From a virus (taxonomy: Duplodnaviria > Heunggongvirae > Uroviricota > Caudoviricetes): a stretch of DNA of 5,053 bases. The position numbers and the translations under genes were made by a program. Shown piece after piece: positions 1 through 5,053 of the stretch (its first letter is position 1; every line of letters begins with the position of its first letter). Location: IMG/VR virus record IMGVR_UViG_2778261058_000018, positions 1-5,053 of that record. One strand, given 5' to 3'. The notes beneath the pieces are model-generated. The model was not told the origin of the DNA and did no database searches. It saw only the letters and a program-made list of their open reading frames with translations.

Positions 1-414
1 GCCAGTGACACCATAAAAATGGTTTACACCGGAGACGGGCGCGTGGTGTGGGTTGGTAAGGATGTGACAGGTATTGAACCCCGTAACGCCAGTGTTATTG
101 AAATTCCTGATATTACCGCTAACCGCCGCATTACCGCACCGGGTTACTGGTTTTACCGCAATGATGAATTTGTTTTCGACTACAAACTTAAAGCGGAAGA
201 TGAGCGTGATGCCCTCTTAAAACAGGTCAGCATCATGACCAGCGAATGGGAAAAAGACCTGCTGCTGGGATTAATCAGCGATGAAGACAGGGAAAAACTG
301 AAAGCGTACCGCATTTACGCGAAATCGCTGCAGGCGCTGGATTTCAGCACCATCACTGATAAAACCTCATATAACGCCATCAACTGGCCGGAGCGTCCCG
401 ATGCCGCAGCTTAA
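1..414 (+). CDS. tfa: Tail fibre assembly protein (Tfa-type), 5'-partial; C-terminal ~138 codons in window
   Basis: The reading frame is open from window position 1 (first ATG at 19), so the gene most likely begins upstream. The C-terminal residues ...LKAYRIYAKSLQALDFSTITD...INWPERP follow the conserved C-terminal pattern of lambda Tfa as I recall it (..LEAWKKYRVLLNRVDTST..IEWPAVP..). Stop TAA at 412-414 overlaps the next gene's ATG at 401, suggesting translational coupling. Confidence 0.75.
   Translation, partial: ASDTIKMVYTGDGRVVWVGKDVTGIEPRNASVIEIPDITANRRITAPGYWFYRNDEFVFDYKLKAEDERDALLKQVSIMTSEWEKDLLLGLISDEDREKLKAYRIYAKSLQALDFSTITDKTSYNAINWPERPDAAA
390..393 (+). promoter_or_regulatory. Shine-Dalgarno (GGAG) for stf
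   Basis: GGAG lies 7 nt upstream of ATG 401, inside the 3' end of the upstream tfa ORF. Confidence 0.5.
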
Positions 415-3400
415 AGGTGTGATTAAAACTCCCACGGGTGAACCGCTGGGCGGCGCAACCATTACACTGACCTCCCTGCACAACCGTGCAGGGATTCTGA
501 AAAGTGTTTTCAGCCATGTCACCACACAGAACGGGGAGTATGACTTCCCCGTTCTGCCGGGTGTGTACAGCGTTCGCCTGACACAAAGCACACAGCGCCT
601 TTCAGAAATCGGTGTCATCCGCGTTTATGAAGATTCAGCGGATGGTTCGCTGAATGATTTTCTGGGCGCAACCGATATTGACCTGCGCCCGGAAGCCCTG
701 AAGAAATTCGAAGAGCTGGCGCAACAGGCGCAGCAAAGCGCAGAAAAAGCAGGAGAGCACGCCACCGCTGCTGAACAGGCCCGTCAGGATACAGAAACGC
801 TCGCCGGGGAAATACAGCAGGATGCAGAAGAAATTGCAGGTAATGTGCAGAAAGCTGAAAAGCTGGCCTCTGAAACAAACCAGAATGCCGCCCGCGCAGA
901 GCAGGCCGTCAAGGATGCCGACCTGATAGTCCAGAAAGCGGTCGATAAACTTGGTGAAGCTGCAACGCTGACCGGCGAGGCAAAAGCCAGCGCAGAAGCG
1001 GCAGCAAAAAGCGAGCAGAACGCGAAACAGCACAGGGACGAGGCGCAACGGATAGTCGATGACCTGAAAGGAACCAGCGCCAGCACGACGCAAAAAGGCC
1101 TGGTGCAACTCTGTAGTGACACGGACAACGACAGCGAGGAACTGGCAGCCACACCAAAGGCTGTCAAAACCGTCATGGACGAGACGAAAACAAAAGCGCC
1201 ACTGGACAGCCCGGCGTTCACCGGCACGCCAACCACACCAACCCCACCGGACGATGCAGTCGGTCTGGAAACCGCGAACGCGGCATTTGTCCGCAAACTG
1301 CTTGCCGCACTGGTTGACTCGTCCCCGGATGCCCTGGACACGCTGAATGAGCTGGCAGCTGCGCTGGGCAATGACCCGGAGTTTGCGACAACAATCATGA
1401 ACGCGCTGGCGGGTAAACAACCACTCAGTGACGTGTTAACCGCAATCAGTAATCTGGAAGAACGGGCAGATAATCTTCTGTGCTTTAATCAGGACGGGAA
1501 TGCTTCACTGTCTCCGCTGTCAGAAAAAGCCCGGTCACTGCTGGCACAGGCCACAGTGGAAGCCATGCGTAATGAGCTTGAGCTGAAAAGCGCAGCGGTA
1601 AGGGACATACAGACAGACCTTTACGACAGCACGGAAGGTCGCGTTGCGCTGCCTGGTGCATTTGGTTACGGAATGACGGACGCCGGAGCACGTTCAATTA
1701 TTGCCAGCAATATAGCGGATATAGCCAGAACCGCTCACAACCTGCACCCGGGACGGTATTACACCTTTTCCACGCGAACGGAAGAAACCACCGGGATAAC
1801 AGAAATTATCTGGCTGGATAATGGCTGGGGCGACAAAACCAGCCAGACAGCAACAAAGCTGGTTCTGTTCTTTGGAAAAGACGGACGGATTCTTATGACC
1901 GTTCGTGGCGATAATATCTCCGCCCCGGTCACCTGGACGAATCTGACGCCACAACTGGGCAATGCAGCACAAAAGGATGCGCAGGAGAATATTTACGACC
2001 GCACCGAAGGCCGCCTGGCGATTCCTGGCATGTTCGGTTTCGGGAAAATATTTTCCAGTAGCGACAGAACTGAATTTAAATCAGGGACTGATTTTCTCAG
2101 GTGGGTAAAAACAGCAAAACCCGGTCGTTATACCGTATTTGCGGACACAAATGTGGTGGTACCTGGCATACAGACAAACGGTGTTATTGAAATTATCTGG
2201 CCACAACCTAAAACCAGCCCGAATGATGAGTATGCCTATAAGATAATTATTTATTACGGTGTTAATGGTCATATTTATTATAACCGTTGCGCGGTGTCAT
2301 CAGATGGTGGTTATCTGGTTGGCTGGGAAAACCTGAAGGTTGATGAGGCTTCACTCAGGGCACTGATTGAAGCCCGCGCACCACTGAAAAGTCCGGCACT
2401 GACCGGAACTCCGACAGCACCAACACCGCCGGATGATGCAGCAGGTAATGAAATAGCCAATGCGGAGTTTGTCCGCAAACTGCTCGCTGCGCTGGTTGGC
2501 TCATCACCGGAAGCCCTCGACACACTGAACGAGCTGGCGGCGGCACTGGGCAATGACCCGAACTTTGCGACAACGGTCACTAATGCACTGGCAGGTAAAC
2601 AGCCGCTTAATGATGTGTTAACGGCTGTCAGCCAGATAACACCGGAAGAAAACACGCTGCCTTATTTCAGCGCAGATGGCCGGATTTTACTGGCGCAGCT
2701 GTCAGAAAAAGCCCGCGCATTACTGGCACTGGACACACCTGAAGCCATGCGCACGGAGCTTGAGCTGAAAGCGGCTGCGACGATGGAACCCCAGAGCGAT
2801 ATCCGCGACCGCACACCGGGCAGGCTGGCACTGTCCGGCATGTATGGGTTCGGTCAGGCATTTGCCAGCACCGAAGCCCTGACATTTGACGGACAGGCCG
2901 ATTTTGCTGAATGGCTGAAAGAGGCCACGCCGGGGCGTTATGCGGTCAGCATTGCGGACTCTTCCACACTACTGGCAGGCACCACAAAATTTAACGGCAT
3001 CATTGATGTGATGTGGTCGCCCTTTGATAACGATGAATCAGACACAACGCGTAAATTCAAAATGCTGCTGTGTTTTAACCAGTATTACGAAGGTGAGCAC
3101 AGTATTCATCGCCTGACTTACCGCTGGAGTGGAAACAACTGGAATGCAACAGTAAGCCCTGTCATTTACGACGGCGATTCGCTGGCGTTCTTACTGTCCC
3201 GGACAGCAGGCTCAGGCTCATATTTCAAATACCCGGCAGTGGGTGTTCCGGTGCTGGCTGTTTATCGCGGAACAACTTCCGGGGATAAAGAAATCAAAAT
3301 TGGCCTGGGTGATGTGGTGCAGGGGTCACAACTGGGCGGAGTTAATCTTTCGTGCACAATATCTTCTGCCGGGCCTGGCTCTTACGGTTCAACACCAAGT

Positions 3401-3508
3401 GCAGGAGCAACAGGGTACACTTTTCCGGGGCGTTATATGGCGTTATCCGGGGTCAGGGACTCTTACGGAACAAGCGGTCGTATCTGCCTGTTTGTGCGCA
3501 TCGAGTAA
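401..3508 (+). CDS. stf: Side tail fibre protein, lambda Stf-type, 1035 aa, modular
   Basis: ATG at 401 with GGAG at 390-393 (7-nt spacer); 1035 codons; stop TAA at 3506-3508. The N-terminus (..GVIRVYEDSADGSLNDFLGATDIDLRPEALKKFEEL..) and the segment TTQKGLVQL..LAATPKAVKTVMDETKTKAPLDSPAFTGTPT..ALDTLNELAAALGNDPEFATT..NALAGKQP resemble lambda Stf as recalled. An Ala/Glu/Gln-rich coiled-coil-like shaft spans aa ~105-225. Long uninterrupted ORF with uniform coding character. Confidence 0.9.
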   Translation: MPQLKGVIKTPTGEPLGGATITLTSLHNRAGILKSVFSHVTTQNGEYDFPVLPGVYSVRLTQSTQRLSEIGVIRVYEDSADGSLNDFLGATDIDLRPEALKKFEELAQQAQQSAEKAGEHATAAEQARQDTETLAGEIQQDAEEIAGNVQKAEKLASETNQNAARAEQAVKDADLIVQKAVDKLGEAATLTGEAKASAEAAAKSEQNAKQHRDEAQRIVDDLKGTSASTTQKGLVQLCSDTDNDSEELAATPKAVKTVMDETKTKAPLDSPAFTGTPTTPTPPDDAVGLETANAAFVRKLLAALVDSSPDALDTLNELAAALGNDPEFATTIMNALAGKQPLSDVLTAISNLEERADNLLCFNQDGNASLSPLSEKARSLLAQATVEAMRNELELKSAAVRDIQTDLYDSTEGRVALPGAFGYGMTDAGARSIIASNIADIARTAHNLHPGRYYTFSTRTEETTGITEIIWLDNGWGDKTSQTATKLVLFFGKDGRILMTVRGDNISAPVTWTNLTPQLGNAAQKDAQENIYDRTEGRLAIPGMFGFGKIFSSSDRTEFKSGTDFLRWVKTAKPGRYTVFADTNVVVPGIQTNGVIEIIWPQPKTSPNDEYAYKIIIYYGVNGHIYYNRCAVSSDGGYLVGWENLKVDEASLRALIEARAPLKSPALTGTPTAPTPPDDAAGNEIANAEFVRKLLAALVGSSPEALDTLNELAAALGNDPNFATTVTNALAGKQPLNDVLTAVSQITPEENTLPYFSADGRILLAQLSEKARALLALDTPEAMRTELELKAAATMEPQSDIRDRTPGRLALSGMYGFGQAFASTEALTFDGQADFAEWLKEATPGRYAVSIADSSTLLAGTTKFNGIIDVMWSPFDNDESDTTRKFKMLLCFNQYYEGEHSIHRLTYRWSGNNWNATVSPVIYDGDSLAFLLSRTAGSGSYFKYPAVGVPVLAVYRGTTSGDKEIKIGLGDVVQGSQLGGVNLSCTISSAGPGSYGSTPSAGATGYTFPGRYMALSGVRDSYGTSGRICLFVRIE
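1196..1450 (+). repeat. Intragenic direct repeat copy 1 (Stf collar segment, aa 266-350)
   Basis: In-frame duplicate of 2378-2632. Identical nucleotide runs include tttgtccgcaaactgct, ctgggcaatgacccg and tttgcgacaac. About 70 of 85 residues are identical by my hand count (APLDSPAFTGTPTTPTPPDD... vs APLKSPALTGTPTAPTPPDD...). Confidence 0.7.
2378..2632 (+). repeat. Intragenic direct repeat copy 2 (Stf collar segment, aa 660-744)
   Basis: Same frame, 1182 nt downstream of copy 1. Weaker similarity continues for ~70 further codons after each copy (..LSEKAR.LLA....EAMR.ELELK.. then D.T.GR.AL.G..G.G). Confidence 0.7.
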
Positions 3509-3510
3509 CG

Positions 3511-3514
3511 AGGA
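3511..3514 (+). promoter_or_regulatory. Shine-Dalgarno (AGGA) for the fibre-adjacent accessory ORF
   Basis: AGGA lies 8 nt upstream of ATG 3523, in the 14-nt gap after the stf stop. Confidence 0.5.
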
Positions 3515-3522
3515 AATAAAAC

Positions 3523-4098
3523 ATGAAAATCAGAGCGGTAAAAGGCATCAGAAACGCGCATTATCTCGAAAATGGTGCGGTTGACTGCGAGGTGCTATTT
3601 GAAGGTGAAAGGGAATTCGTCCCGTATACCGCCATGCAGGACGATAGCGCCCCGACAGGCCAGCGCATCTGGGAAGAGTTACAGAGCGGCAAATGGGGCG
3701 AAATCGCCCCGTTCACCGTCACGCCGGAACTTATCGCAGCGGCAAAAGATGCCAAAAAGCGGGAAATCGAGGTGTGGCGCACAGAACAGGAAGCGAAGCC
3801 GTTCACGTTCGAATGGAACGGCCACATCTGGAACGCTGGCCCCGACTCACTGGCTCGCCTTTATCCGGTGGTGATGGCATCAAAATCCGATATGGCATGC
3901 GACGTTATGACGTGGGGTGACGCCGATAATCAACAGGTGAAACTGTCGATACAGGAACTGGAAGAACTGGCGACAGCAATGGCGCAGGCACAGGTCGATC
4001 GCAATGACGAGATTTATCAGCGCCAGCGTGAAATGAAGGAGCAGCTTTCCCAGCTGTCCATACTCGACGAGGTGAGAGCGTTAACTGTCGGTGATTAA
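3523..4098 (+). CDS. Putative tail-fibre-associated accessory or chaperone-like protein, 191 aa; function uncertain
   Basis: ATG at 3523 with AGGA 8 nt upstream; starts 14 nt after the stf stop; stop TAA at 4096-4098. Position directly 3' of a fibre gene and size fit a fibre assembly chaperone. However, the C-terminus (..QLSQLSILDEVRALTVGD) lacks the Tfa-type motif seen in the upstream gene, so it would be a different family (possibly DUF4376-like; cannot be verified without an HMM search). Confidence 0.6.
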   Translation: MKIRAVKGIRNAHYLENGAVDCEVLFEGEREFVPYTAMQDDSAPTGQRIWEELQSGKWGEIAPFTVTPELIAAAKDAKKREIEVWRTEQEAKPFTFEWNGHIWNAGPDSLARLYPVVMASKSDMACDVMTWGDADNQQVKLSIQELEELATAMAQAQVDRNDEIYQRQREMKEQLSQLSILDEVRALTVGD

Positions 4099-4120
4099 AT
4101 AATCAGTTTGTATAGTTTAT

Positions 4121-4148
4121 GACGATCGATAACATCATATCGATCGTC
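4121..4148. promoter_or_regulatory. Perfect 11-bp inverted repeat (GACGATCGATA-acatca-TATCGATCGTC) carrying two GATC sites; candidate Dam-sensitive operator and/or weak terminator
   Basis: Read directly from the sequence: arms 4121-4131 and 4138-4148, GATC at 4124-4127 and 4142-4145. Sits in the 123-nt gap between the accessory ORF stop (4098) and com. Followed by GGTTTG rather than a strong T-tract. Confidence 0.4.
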
Positions 4149-4212
4149 GGTTTGCATCGGTTGTGATTAAATACCCCCAGCCCTCCGGGCGCTCATGTCT
4201 GGTTATTACACA

Positions 4213-4218
4213 GGGGGA
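4213..4218 (+). promoter_or_regulatory. Shine-Dalgarno (GGGGGA) for com
   Basis: GGGGGA lies 3 nt upstream of ATG 4222. Confidence 0.5.
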
Positions 4219-4221
4219 ATC

Positions 4222-4407
4222 ATGGACTCTGTTCGCTGTAAAAACTGCAATAAATTACTGTTTAAAGGAGGTTTTAAGCATATAGAAATTAAATGTCCTC
4301 GCTGTAAACGTTACATTGTCATATCGAATGCCAAAGAGCATCCCACGGAGCTGTATTGTGGGAAAAGAGAAGAAATCACGCATTCTGACAAAACCCTGCG
4401 TTATTGA
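4222..4407 (+). CDS. com: Com-like zinc-ribbon translational activator of mom, 61 aa
   Basis: ATG at 4222 preceded by GGGGGA at 4213-4218; stop TGA at 4405-4407. Product [61 protein letters not shown] has paired CxxC motifs (C6/C9, C25/C28) and closely resembles Mu Com as I recall it. The track's longer ORF from ATG 4195 has no ribosome-binding site, so 4222 is preferred. Confidence 0.85.
4341..4363 (+). promoter_or_regulatory. mRNA stem-loop occluding the putative mom SD and GTG start (candidate Com-responsive translation initiation region)
   Basis: UCCCACGG (4341-4348) can pair with UUGUGGGA (4356-4363): six Watson-Crick pairs plus two G-U, loop AGCUGUA. The stem includes GGAG 4347-4350 and GTG 4358-4360. 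Confidence 0.4.
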
Positions 4408-5053
4408 GTATGAAGGCCATATTGTCGGCTATGGTTCAAAGGAGCTGCGTGTTGAAACCATATCCTGCTGGCTGGCCCGCACAATCATTCAGACAAAGCA
4501 TTATTCCCGCCGTTTTGTGAATAACTCCTACCTGCATCTGGGCGTATTCAGCGGACGTGATCTGGTTGGTGTTCTTCAGTGGGGATATGCCCTTAACCCC
4601 AACTCAGGGCGCCGGGTCGTGCTTGAAACGGATAACCGGGGCTATATGGAACTGAACCGTATGTGGTTACACGATGACATGCCCCGCAACTCTGAATCAC
4701 GGGCCATCAGCTACGCGCTGAAAACCATCAGGTTACTGTATCCGTCAGTGGAGTGGGTTCAGTCCTTTGCAGACGAACGTTGCGGACGTGCAGGCGTGGT
4801 ATATCAGGCGTCGAATTTTGATTTTATTGGCAGCCATGAAAGCACGTTCTACGAGCTGGACGGCGAGTGGTATCACGAGATAACGATGAACGCGATTAAG
4901 CGTGGAGGGCAACGAGGCGTGTATTTGCGGGCTAATAAGGAGCGGGCCGTGGTACACAAATTTAATCAATATCGCTACATCAGATTCCTGAATAAGCGTG
5001 CAAAAAAGCGCCTAAACACCAAGCTATTCAGGATTCAGCCATACCCGAAGTGA
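4358..5053 (+). CDS. mom: Mom-like DNA modification protein (adenine N6-acetamido/methylcarbamoyl-type modification, anti-restriction)
   Basis: The frame is open from 4316 (TTG) to stop TGA at 5051-5053 and overlaps the 3' end of com in a different frame, which is the Mu com-mom arrangement. Preferred start is GTG 4358 (GGAG 4347-4350, 7-nt spacer), giving 231 aa. Alternatives are ATG 4328 (no SD) or TTG 4316. The translation (..[36 protein letters not shown]...[20 protein letters not shown]...) matches what I recall of Mu Mom. Confidence 0.85.

Follow-up and report, generated by a model that had tools for sequence, protein, structure and literature searches.

The question raised by this locus is whether a com-mom DNA-modification operon of the Mu type, located directly behind a side tail fibre module of the lambda type, has been captured by an unrelated phage, or whether it still occupies its own place in a Mu-family genome in which the fibre is the part that was exchanged. 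The window, i.e., the whole stretch of 5,053 nucleotides analysed here, corresponds to bases 3-5055 of the NCBI contig NLOO01000030.1 from E. coli (assembly GCA_002229605.1). This contig opens inside the fibre cluster, so that of its own prophage just the part between that cluster and the right end is visible; the left end, the transposase, the target duplication, and the intactness described below are read from relatives that are 92-95% identical. The features of the window are collected in Table 1. Taken together, they very probably represent a com-mom operon in its native place, next to the right end of a transposable E. coli prophage of the Mu family with a replaced fibre cluster, in which the S/U G segment and gin of Mu would have given way to a protein resembling the N-terminus of S, a U-like Tfa protein, a lambda-Stf-type fibre, and a DUF4376 protein.

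Table 1. Features of the window, with coordinates, strand, and basis of assignment
Feature	Position	Strand	Basis
Caudo_TAP, Mu U-like tail-fibre assembly gene, 3' part	19..414	+	Pfam PF02413, E 1.8e-20
Side-tail-fibre-type protein, 1035 aa	401..3508	+	Pfam PF08400 (phage_tail_N), PF03406 (Phage_fiber_2)
DUF4376 protein, 191 aa	3523..4098	+	Pfam PF14301, E 6.8e-16
mom control region, Mu-homologous but remodelled	4110..4221	+	Alignments with Mu and 19 other loci
com, 61-aa CCCC zinc-finger translational activator of mom (ATG start)	4222..4407	+	Pfam and Mu Com identity
Predicted Com-target RNA hairpin, AUGC-CAAAGA-GCAU	4328..4341	+	Local fold; motif from PMC6483171
Predicted translation-inhibition hairpin, CCCAC...GUGGG	4342..4362	+	Folds of window and Mu; model from PMC6483171
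mom, tRNA(Gly)-dependent adenine N6 glycyl-transferase, GNAT fold (231 aa, GTG start)	4358..5053	+	Sequence searches; mechanism PMC13219725

Identity and conservation of com and mom

The product of com matches the Pfam family Zn_ribbon_Com (E 2.5e-7; 30.5 bits against a cut-off of 22.9), agrees with Mu Com at 45 of 62 positions (73%, E 1e-33), and keeps all of the zinc-binding cysteines C6, C9, C25, and C28; a PDB sequence search with Com returned no match. The product of mom belongs to the Pfam family Mom, PF25680 (E 1.7e-75; 253.5 bits against a curated cut-off of 27.1), is identical to Mu Mom at 226 of 231 residues (98%, E 6e-178), and matches the Mom crystal structure PDB 8bv8 with E 3e-156. 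The genes share 50 nt, which each reads in a different frame, a layout identical to that of Mu (35768-35956 and 35907-36602), and the length of mom equals that of the GenBank Mu gene. An alternative mom start, the AUG at 4328, gives the 241-aa form found in UniProt and in structural papers, whose numbering is used for residues below. At the DNA level, the window is about 89% identical to Mu, D108, and SfMu from 4232 onwards. The preliminary description had recognised a Mu-type com and mom pair, overlapping and in different frames, and both the Pfam assignments and the similarity to the Mu proteins bear this out.

Relative to Mu, mom carries 54 nucleotide differences, 47 of which fall at third codon positions, with a dS of 0.39 and a dN/dS of 0.03. 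Judged by these values, mom is an old, strongly constrained orthologue and no recent copy of the Mu gene, and by the same comparison it is under strong purifying selection across the lineage. The likeness to the operon of Mu (AF083977, 35693-36602), as well as to those of D108 and SfMu, extends from gene order, gene lengths, and the 50-nt overlap to a GUG start inside an inhibitory hairpin, a CC(N)3GAG hairpin, a GATC-containing upstream region, and the right-end position. In contrast to the Mu operon, the window has a 61-aa Com allele, two of the three GATC sites, and an altered promoter core, and the upstream neighbour of com is a DUF4376 gene instead of gin.

The Mu right end and complete relatives

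In the source contig, the mom stop codon is followed by 117 bp that match the right end of Mu by alignment (locus L003, 5056-5170), and dhaK comes next. This right end holds repeated MuA-binding sequences of the form TTTCGC(A/G)TTT... and a terminal ...GTGCGCCGCTTCA (...CGCTTCA), past which similarity to other insertions ends. The host flank that follows consists of a disrupted dhaK fragment, dhaL, dhaM, and treA, and matches many E. coli chromosomes at 100% identity. Since the Mu right end adjoins mom, com-mom occupies the place it has in Mu, with no other operon between it and the right transposon end. The earlier statement that the neighbourhood is not Mu-like finds no support once the source contig is followed beyond mom, into the Mu right end and the interrupted host gene.

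The arrangement of DUF4376, com, mom, and right end recurs in three E. coli chromosomes, namely STEC1575, ETEC1732, and Z0117EC0133. The closest complete relatives are Mu-type prophages of about 35 kb. The STEC1575 element, of 34 kb, encodes repressor c, ner, transposase A, AAA ATPase B, gam, gp16, and a Mor-family gene; endolysin, terminase, a DUF935 portal, protease, and the Mu gpT major head protein; and sheath, tube, tape measure, the DNA circularisation protein N, and baseplate proteins (homologues of 44-48). ETEC1732, whose prophage is inserted in flhA, has the same organisation and is of the Mu type by gene content; it is the closest relative, with 95% identity over Tfa-com-mom and a 1037-aa fibre, and two of its tail and baseplate genes are frameshifted. 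Z0117EC0133 is a deleted remnant in ddpF with a truncated transposase, no head or tail genes, and an intact com-mom. Both STEC1575 and Z0117EC0133 start with the Mu left end TGTATTGATTCACTTGAAGTACG, the Mu-type left end sequence being TGTATTGATTCACTTGAAG..., and are flanked by the 5-bp direct duplications TTGCA and TTGCC. A 5-bp target duplication is the signature of Mu transposition.

These closest relatives share with Mu-like (Muvirus-related) prophages of the Enterobacteriaceae the transposon ends, the 5-bp duplication, the c, ner, A, B, gam, and Mor genes, the head, the contractile tail, and the baseplate. They differ from them in having no C gene, a GH108 endolysin, Mor-type boxes at the lys and head promoters, a replaced fibre cluster, and no gin or G segment. 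Their baseplate proteins are 31-38% identical to gp47 and gp48 of Mu; a short protein with 45% identity to the first 100 residues of Mu S comes next to a U-like assembly protein that follows it. The lineage is a genuine but distant relative of Mu.

Translational control of mom

In Mu, Com binds a short hairpin with the loop motif 5'-CC(N)2-3GAG-3' and a closing C-G pair, and this binding opens a neighbouring hairpin that holds the GUG start of mom (PMC6483171). Within a 60-nt context, the window folds into both of the hairpins described for Mu: the first predicted hairpin bears a CC(N)3GAG motif, and the second (CCCACG...UGUGGG) sequesters the mom GUG at 4358-4360, the Shine-Dalgarno sequence GGAG being located at 4347-4350. 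The Com-target site reads CCUGCGAG in Mu and CCAAAGAG in the window, and elsewhere the N3 of the motif is UCA, ACA, UUC, GUU, or CAG, with invariant stems in all lineages sampled. By analogy with Mu, Com would be translated first and would bind the CC(N)3GAG hairpin, the elements of which are present, and its binding would open the adjacent hairpin and free the mom Shine-Dalgarno sequence and GUG.

The kept CC(N)3GAG with a free N3 agrees with the SELEX result. No covariation was found in either hairpin across the sampled lineages, in which variation is confined to the loops and the stems do not change, and the folding energy of the hairpin region is no better than that of shuffled sequence (z -0.5). 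Because the stems are invariant and doubly coding, and the energy is close to that of shuffled sequence, conservation of the hairpins is no independent proof of their structure. A scan of the whole window against Rfam at a permissive E-value gave nothing for com-mom and only a chance snoRNA match at 2300-2368.

The mom control region

A spacer of 123 bp separates the DUF4376 gene from com. The preliminary description had set the start of the cassette at 4121, which lies just inside the stretch homologous to the Mu mom control region, whose onset is at about 4110. The TATAG element is kept at 4111-4126 and is presumably an OxyR-like half-site. In Mu, GATC occurs three times ahead of com, at -109, -91, and -78 relative to its ATG, and this region is bound by OxyR when it is unmethylated. 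The control region of the window has two, at 4124-4127 and 4142-4145, and the third is replaced by CATC (4155-4158). Both the conserved pair and the CATC are found in all 11 of the Stf-lineage loci aligned.

GATC is scarce in this DNA as a whole: the window has four sites where about 15-17 would be expected, and the fibre gene, 3.1 kb long, has none. The observed-to-expected ratio of this depleted background is 0.23-0.32, with about 0.3 over whole relatives, compared with 0.45 in Mu and 0.8 in host DNA. As GATC is depleted elsewhere and yet the pair is retained, the retained pair is likely to be functional. The two sites within the OxyR-like site probably keep Dam/OxyR gating of the operon.

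Downstream of its GATC trio, Mu has a C box (ATAACCxC), a T6 run, and the -10 element TAAGAT. This promoter core is lost in the window, where the T6 run, the TAAGAT -10, and the spacing are gone and 11 bp are absent relative to Mu. The block GATTAAATACCCCCAGCCCTCCGGG at 4165-4189, which contains the C-box-like ATACCCCC, is near-invariant over 11 members of the lineage, whereas its flanks vary. The Shine-Dalgarno sequence of com, GGGGGA, lies at 4213-4218. A sigma-70 promoter scan upstream of com found none, -10 hexamer candidates not being assignable with confidence, and no Mor box was found upstream of com in the window; the consensus scans for Mor boxes and promoters are crude.

Late transcription in a lineage without C

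In the prophages of STEC1575 and ETEC1732, the Mor/C family is represented by a single gene whose product shares 63% identity with Mor and 32% with C; no second, C-like gene was found in either. ETEC1732 has an additional ORF of 165 aa, placed between mor and lys, which was considered as a C analogue and rejected, as it has no Pfam match and no similarity to C. With a core that is not conserved and no C homologue in STEC1575 or ETEC1732, the region upstream of com does not look like a C-dependent promoter. As the relatives lack a C activator, the transcription step is not transferable from Mu.

In the relatives, the Mor box AGCCGGTAAATCCGGCT, almost identical to the Mor site of the Mu middle promoter (Pm), precedes with a T7 run both the lys (endolysin) gene and the head protease gene. 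The stretch of the relatives from the head promoter to com showed neither another Mor box nor a convincing terminator on the + strand, and a strong hairpin terminator is located downstream of mom. The cascade of the lineage may accordingly be read as a two-step one, from early genes through Mor to late genes, and com and mom would be transcribed late in lytic growth, possibly by read-through from the late operon or else from an activator-dependent promoter within 4165-4221.

A refinement of the native-operon reading follows from this, in which control of the operon has been rewired: com-mom would be transcribed by read-through of the Mor-dependent late operon, or by some other activator acting at 4165-4189, and the switch by Com and hairpin would be unchanged. 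The single Mor/C-family gene, the placement of the Mor boxes ahead of lys and protease with no convincing terminator before com, the terminator after mom, the lack of a sigma-70-like promoter upstream of com, and the near-invariant block all point in this direction. This proposal is sequence inference from relatives throughout. Moreover, the block keeps the C-box-like ATACCCCC, which a Mor-like protein might recognise, and a promoter of the operon's own is favoured by the length of the spacer (123 bp) and by the conservation of the two GATC sites. Rewired transcription is therefore offered tentatively, as a possibility that falls somewhat short of an even chance; the accompanying idea that Dam/OxyR gating has been cut to two GATC sites belongs to the same joint claim and is held just as tentatively.

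Intactness of the operon

The copy of com-mom in the window might also be the silent relic of a defective prophage and no longer active. The contig break inside the fibre cluster leaves room for this, and the relatives supply examples of decay: the Z0117EC0133 remnant keeps com-mom intact despite its truncated transposase and its lost head and tail genes, and ETEC1732 has its two frameshifted tail and baseplate genes. Nevertheless, the DNA at hand shows no damage to either open reading frame, to the RNA elements, or to the right end, mom is under strong purifying selection throughout the lineage, and complete prophages exist within it. An inactive relic is on balance unlikely, although it deserves more weight than the two alternatives taken up below.

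The fibre module and the direction of exchange

The first gene of the window is incomplete, its 5' end lying beyond the start of both window and contig (the gene call runs off the contig), and its product is 30% identical to Mu U by tblastn. The fibre encoded behind it has a PF08400 N-terminal domain (E 2.8e-26) and a Phage_fiber_2 repeat, its N-terminus is 48% identical to lambda Stf/orf-401 over the aligned parts, and tblastn matches it to lambda Stf, phage 434, Stx phages, and Rac-SA53, in line with the earlier recognition of a 1035-aa fibre of the lambda-Stf type. An internal duplication is present in the fibre gene (1196-1449 against 2378-2631). With the lambda Stf and lambdoid cassettes (Rac-SA53, phiP27, 434, and Stx), the window shares the PF08400 domain, the fibre repeat, and the downstream DUF4376 gene. 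Unlike them, the module here sits on a baseplate cluster of a Mu-type myovirus, behind a short S-like fibre and a U-like Tfa, and the fibre carries an extra duplicated module (1035 aa compared with 777 aa in some relatives). In relatives, the gene that separates the Stf-type fibre from com is in every case a DUF4376 gene, and from this position its product is presumed to be a fibre chaperone or assembly partner.

Searches for the inversion system of Mu were negative: no Gin homologue was found by tblastn in the window or the source contig, no gix/cix site within three mismatches was found in the window, and no long inverted repeat or hidden invertible segment was detected there. The absence of gin and of a G segment that had been noted at the outset is thereby upheld.

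It had been proposed from this fibre and this absence that a mosaic phage captured mom as a moron, i.e., that a lambdoid or other non-Mu phage took up com-mom in its late region behind an Stf fibre. The DNA of the window from 1 to 4040 is indeed about 90% identical to Tfa-Stf-DUF4376 cassettes of non-Mu E. coli prophages, including Rac-SA53, phiP27, and a prophage of E. coli W and 'DH5alpha', and no gin or G segment is present in the window. However, no com-mom follows the fibre cassette in any of those non-Mu prophages, whereas in the source contig a Mu right end with MuA-binding repeats stands directly after mom and is followed by the disrupted dhaK. In addition, homology to Mu runs from about 4110 through the right end, and the complete relatives are all transposable prophages of the Mu type, with 5-bp target duplications and a Mu left end in STEC1575, as also in the Z0117EC0133 remnant. 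Capture by a non-Mu phage is thus highly improbable. Because Mu homology resumes at about 4110 and the fibre cassette is lambdoid, the fibre module is the part swapped into a Mu-like phage; com-mom being in its ancestral position, the exchange ran opposite to the direction that had been proposed.

Distribution of the arrangement

The arrangement is a common one: a match to DUF4376-com-mom with at least 80% coverage was found in 18 of 5426 complete E. coli genomes. A search of genome contigs with Mom gave three loci only, too few for statistics, and an IMG/VR sample of 43 loci encoding a close relative of Mom was used instead. Gin lies directly upstream, as in Mu, in 20 of the 43, and Mu-type S/U genes without gin are found in five. 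The DUF4376 gene is directly upstream of com in 13; an Stf-type fibre is visible in 12 of these, and the contig of the thirteenth starts inside DUF4376. A truncated Stf stub stands directly before com in a further four. The Stf lineage thus comprises 17 of the 43 loci, none of which has gin and all of which carry the 61-aa com allele, the allele of the gin lineage being 62 aa long; a fibre of about 1040 aa, like that of the window, is present in 3 of the 17. A separate Mu-like lineage (loci L008, L048, and L050) has U-com-mom without gin and a Mom that is 82-87% identical. With several gin-less mom lineages, the absence of gin beside mom is not unusual. Genes arranged in this way already bear the RefSeq names 'protein mom' and 'Com family', and a literature search found no paper that describes this lineage specifically.

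Modification chemistry and specificity

The preliminary description had Mom convert adenine to N6-(1-acetamido)adenine; N6 of adenine stands as the modified position, and the chemistry needs updating. Mu Mom acts on double-stranded DNA, where it transfers glycine from Gly-tRNA(Gly) to the N6 of adenines within S-A-S sites, after which an on-base rearrangement yields N6-carbamoylmethyl-dA (PMC13219725). Residues R111, S124, D149, and R151 are essential to the enzyme, and W48, H58, Y59, Y159, W181, and an HTH-like insertion at 175-209 are important (PMC13219725). All ten of Y28, W48, H58, Y59, R111, S124, D149, R151, Y159, and W181 are identical to Mu in the window, and the HTH-like DNA-binding insertion is wholly identical. 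Given its 98% identity to the characterised enzyme, the Mom of the window would glycylate N6 of S-A-S adenines in phage DNA, and rearrangement to N6-carbamoylmethyl-adenine would then block many restriction enzymes.

That the homologue has acquired an altered sequence specificity or an altered modification, as had also been suggested, is highly improbable, because the five substitutions relative to Mu that could be cited for it (Q31H, V133T, R226K, K235R, and V236I) are all conservative and lie outside the functionally important residues and the HTH-like insertion, and because Mom keeps 96-98% identity whether the lineage compared has gin or an Stf fibre.

Biological meaning

The cassette is a normal com-mom anti-restriction operon, a real but ordinary feature. 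It gives no sign that mom has spread into unrelated phages, and what it records is an ordinary exchange of fibres in a Mu-family prophage. The near-frozen state of Mom, with a dN/dS of 0.03 across lineages separated by a dS of about 0.4, fits the tight structural constraints reported in 2026, and the varying N3 in the preserved CC(N)3GAG constitutes a natural data set that agrees with SELEX.

The sole thread worth an experiment is the rewired mom promoter in a C-less background. The lineage is a natural C-less variant of the mom promoter and could show which layers of mom control are dispensable. If the rewired control proposed above is true, a toxic mom gene would be placed under a circuit unlike the textbook one of Mu, in a widespread C-less lineage.

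Structure of the fibre gene and its variants

The lambda-Stf-type fibre gene contains an internal direct duplication of 254 nt, the two copies of which share 78% identity and lie 1182 nt (394 aa) apart. The fibre measures 777 aa in some relatives and about 1040 aa in the ETEC1732 prophage and three IMG/VR contigs; the longer version has the look of a recombinant built from two modules. A stretch of the fibre gene matches the constant region (Sc) of tail fibre gene S of P1 and P7, next to cixR, at 83–85% nucleotide identity; this stretch is the shared fibre 'collar' segment. No cix or gix sites were found in the window.

In four IMG/VR mom loci (L029, L033, L039, and L042), the Stf-type fibre is reduced to a stub of about 130 aa. 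The stub joins the com control region almost directly, and the DUF4376 gene is missing; these loci are deletion variants within the window's Stf-fibre lineage.

Features located in the window, its E. coli contig (L003), and the STEC1575 (L004/L005) and ETEC1732 (L054) prophages
Feature	Record	Position
Fibre gene	Window	401-3508
Duplication, first copy	Window	1196-1449
Duplication, second copy	Window	2378-2631
Collar segment	Window	2484-2612
In-frame AUG, 30 nt 5' of mom GUG	Window	4328-4330
Likely terminator hairpin CAGCGG-TTAAT-GCCGCTG, then T-run	L003	5078-5100, just past window end
Mor-operator near-copy	L005	4559-4643 (- strand)
Mor-operator near-copy	L004	5469-5485
Mor-operator near-copy	L054	9430-9460

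Start and end of the com-mom operon

Initiation at the in-frame AUG upstream of the mom GUG yields a Mom of 241 aa, the form that RefSeq and UniProt list and that the 2026 structure paper (PMC13219725) also uses, and this AUG falls within the stem of the predicted Com-target hairpin. Mom is reported to tolerate deletion of its first 10 residues (PMC13219725), which is consistent with the GUG as the real start. Beyond the mom stop and before the right-end MuA-binding sites, a hairpin better formed than that of Mu is likely the operon terminator.

RefSeq (records L002, L004, and L054) labels com a 'Com family DNA-binding transcriptional regulator', contrary to its actual role as an RNA-binding translational activator, and its names for Mom vary between records ('protein mom', 'hypothetical protein', or 'tRNA(Gly)-dependent adenine aminoacyltransferase Mom').

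GATC depletion

GATC is strongly depleted across the window (1-5053), with 4 sites observed against about 15–17 expected; half of these form a pair upstream of com, and no GATC occurs in the 3.1-kb fibre gene. The observed/expected ratio is about 0.3 across the whole STEC1575 and ETEC1732 prophages; the corresponding values are about 0.45 for Mu and about 0.8 for the flanking host DNA.

Lytic cascade of the related prophages

In these two complete Mu-type relatives, near-copies of the Mor operator of the Mu middle promoter (AGCCGGTAAATCCGGCT, then a T7 run) precede the genes for the endolysin and the head protease, and no Mu C gene was found; together, these observations suggest that the lytic cascade of the relatives is two-tier rather than three-tier.
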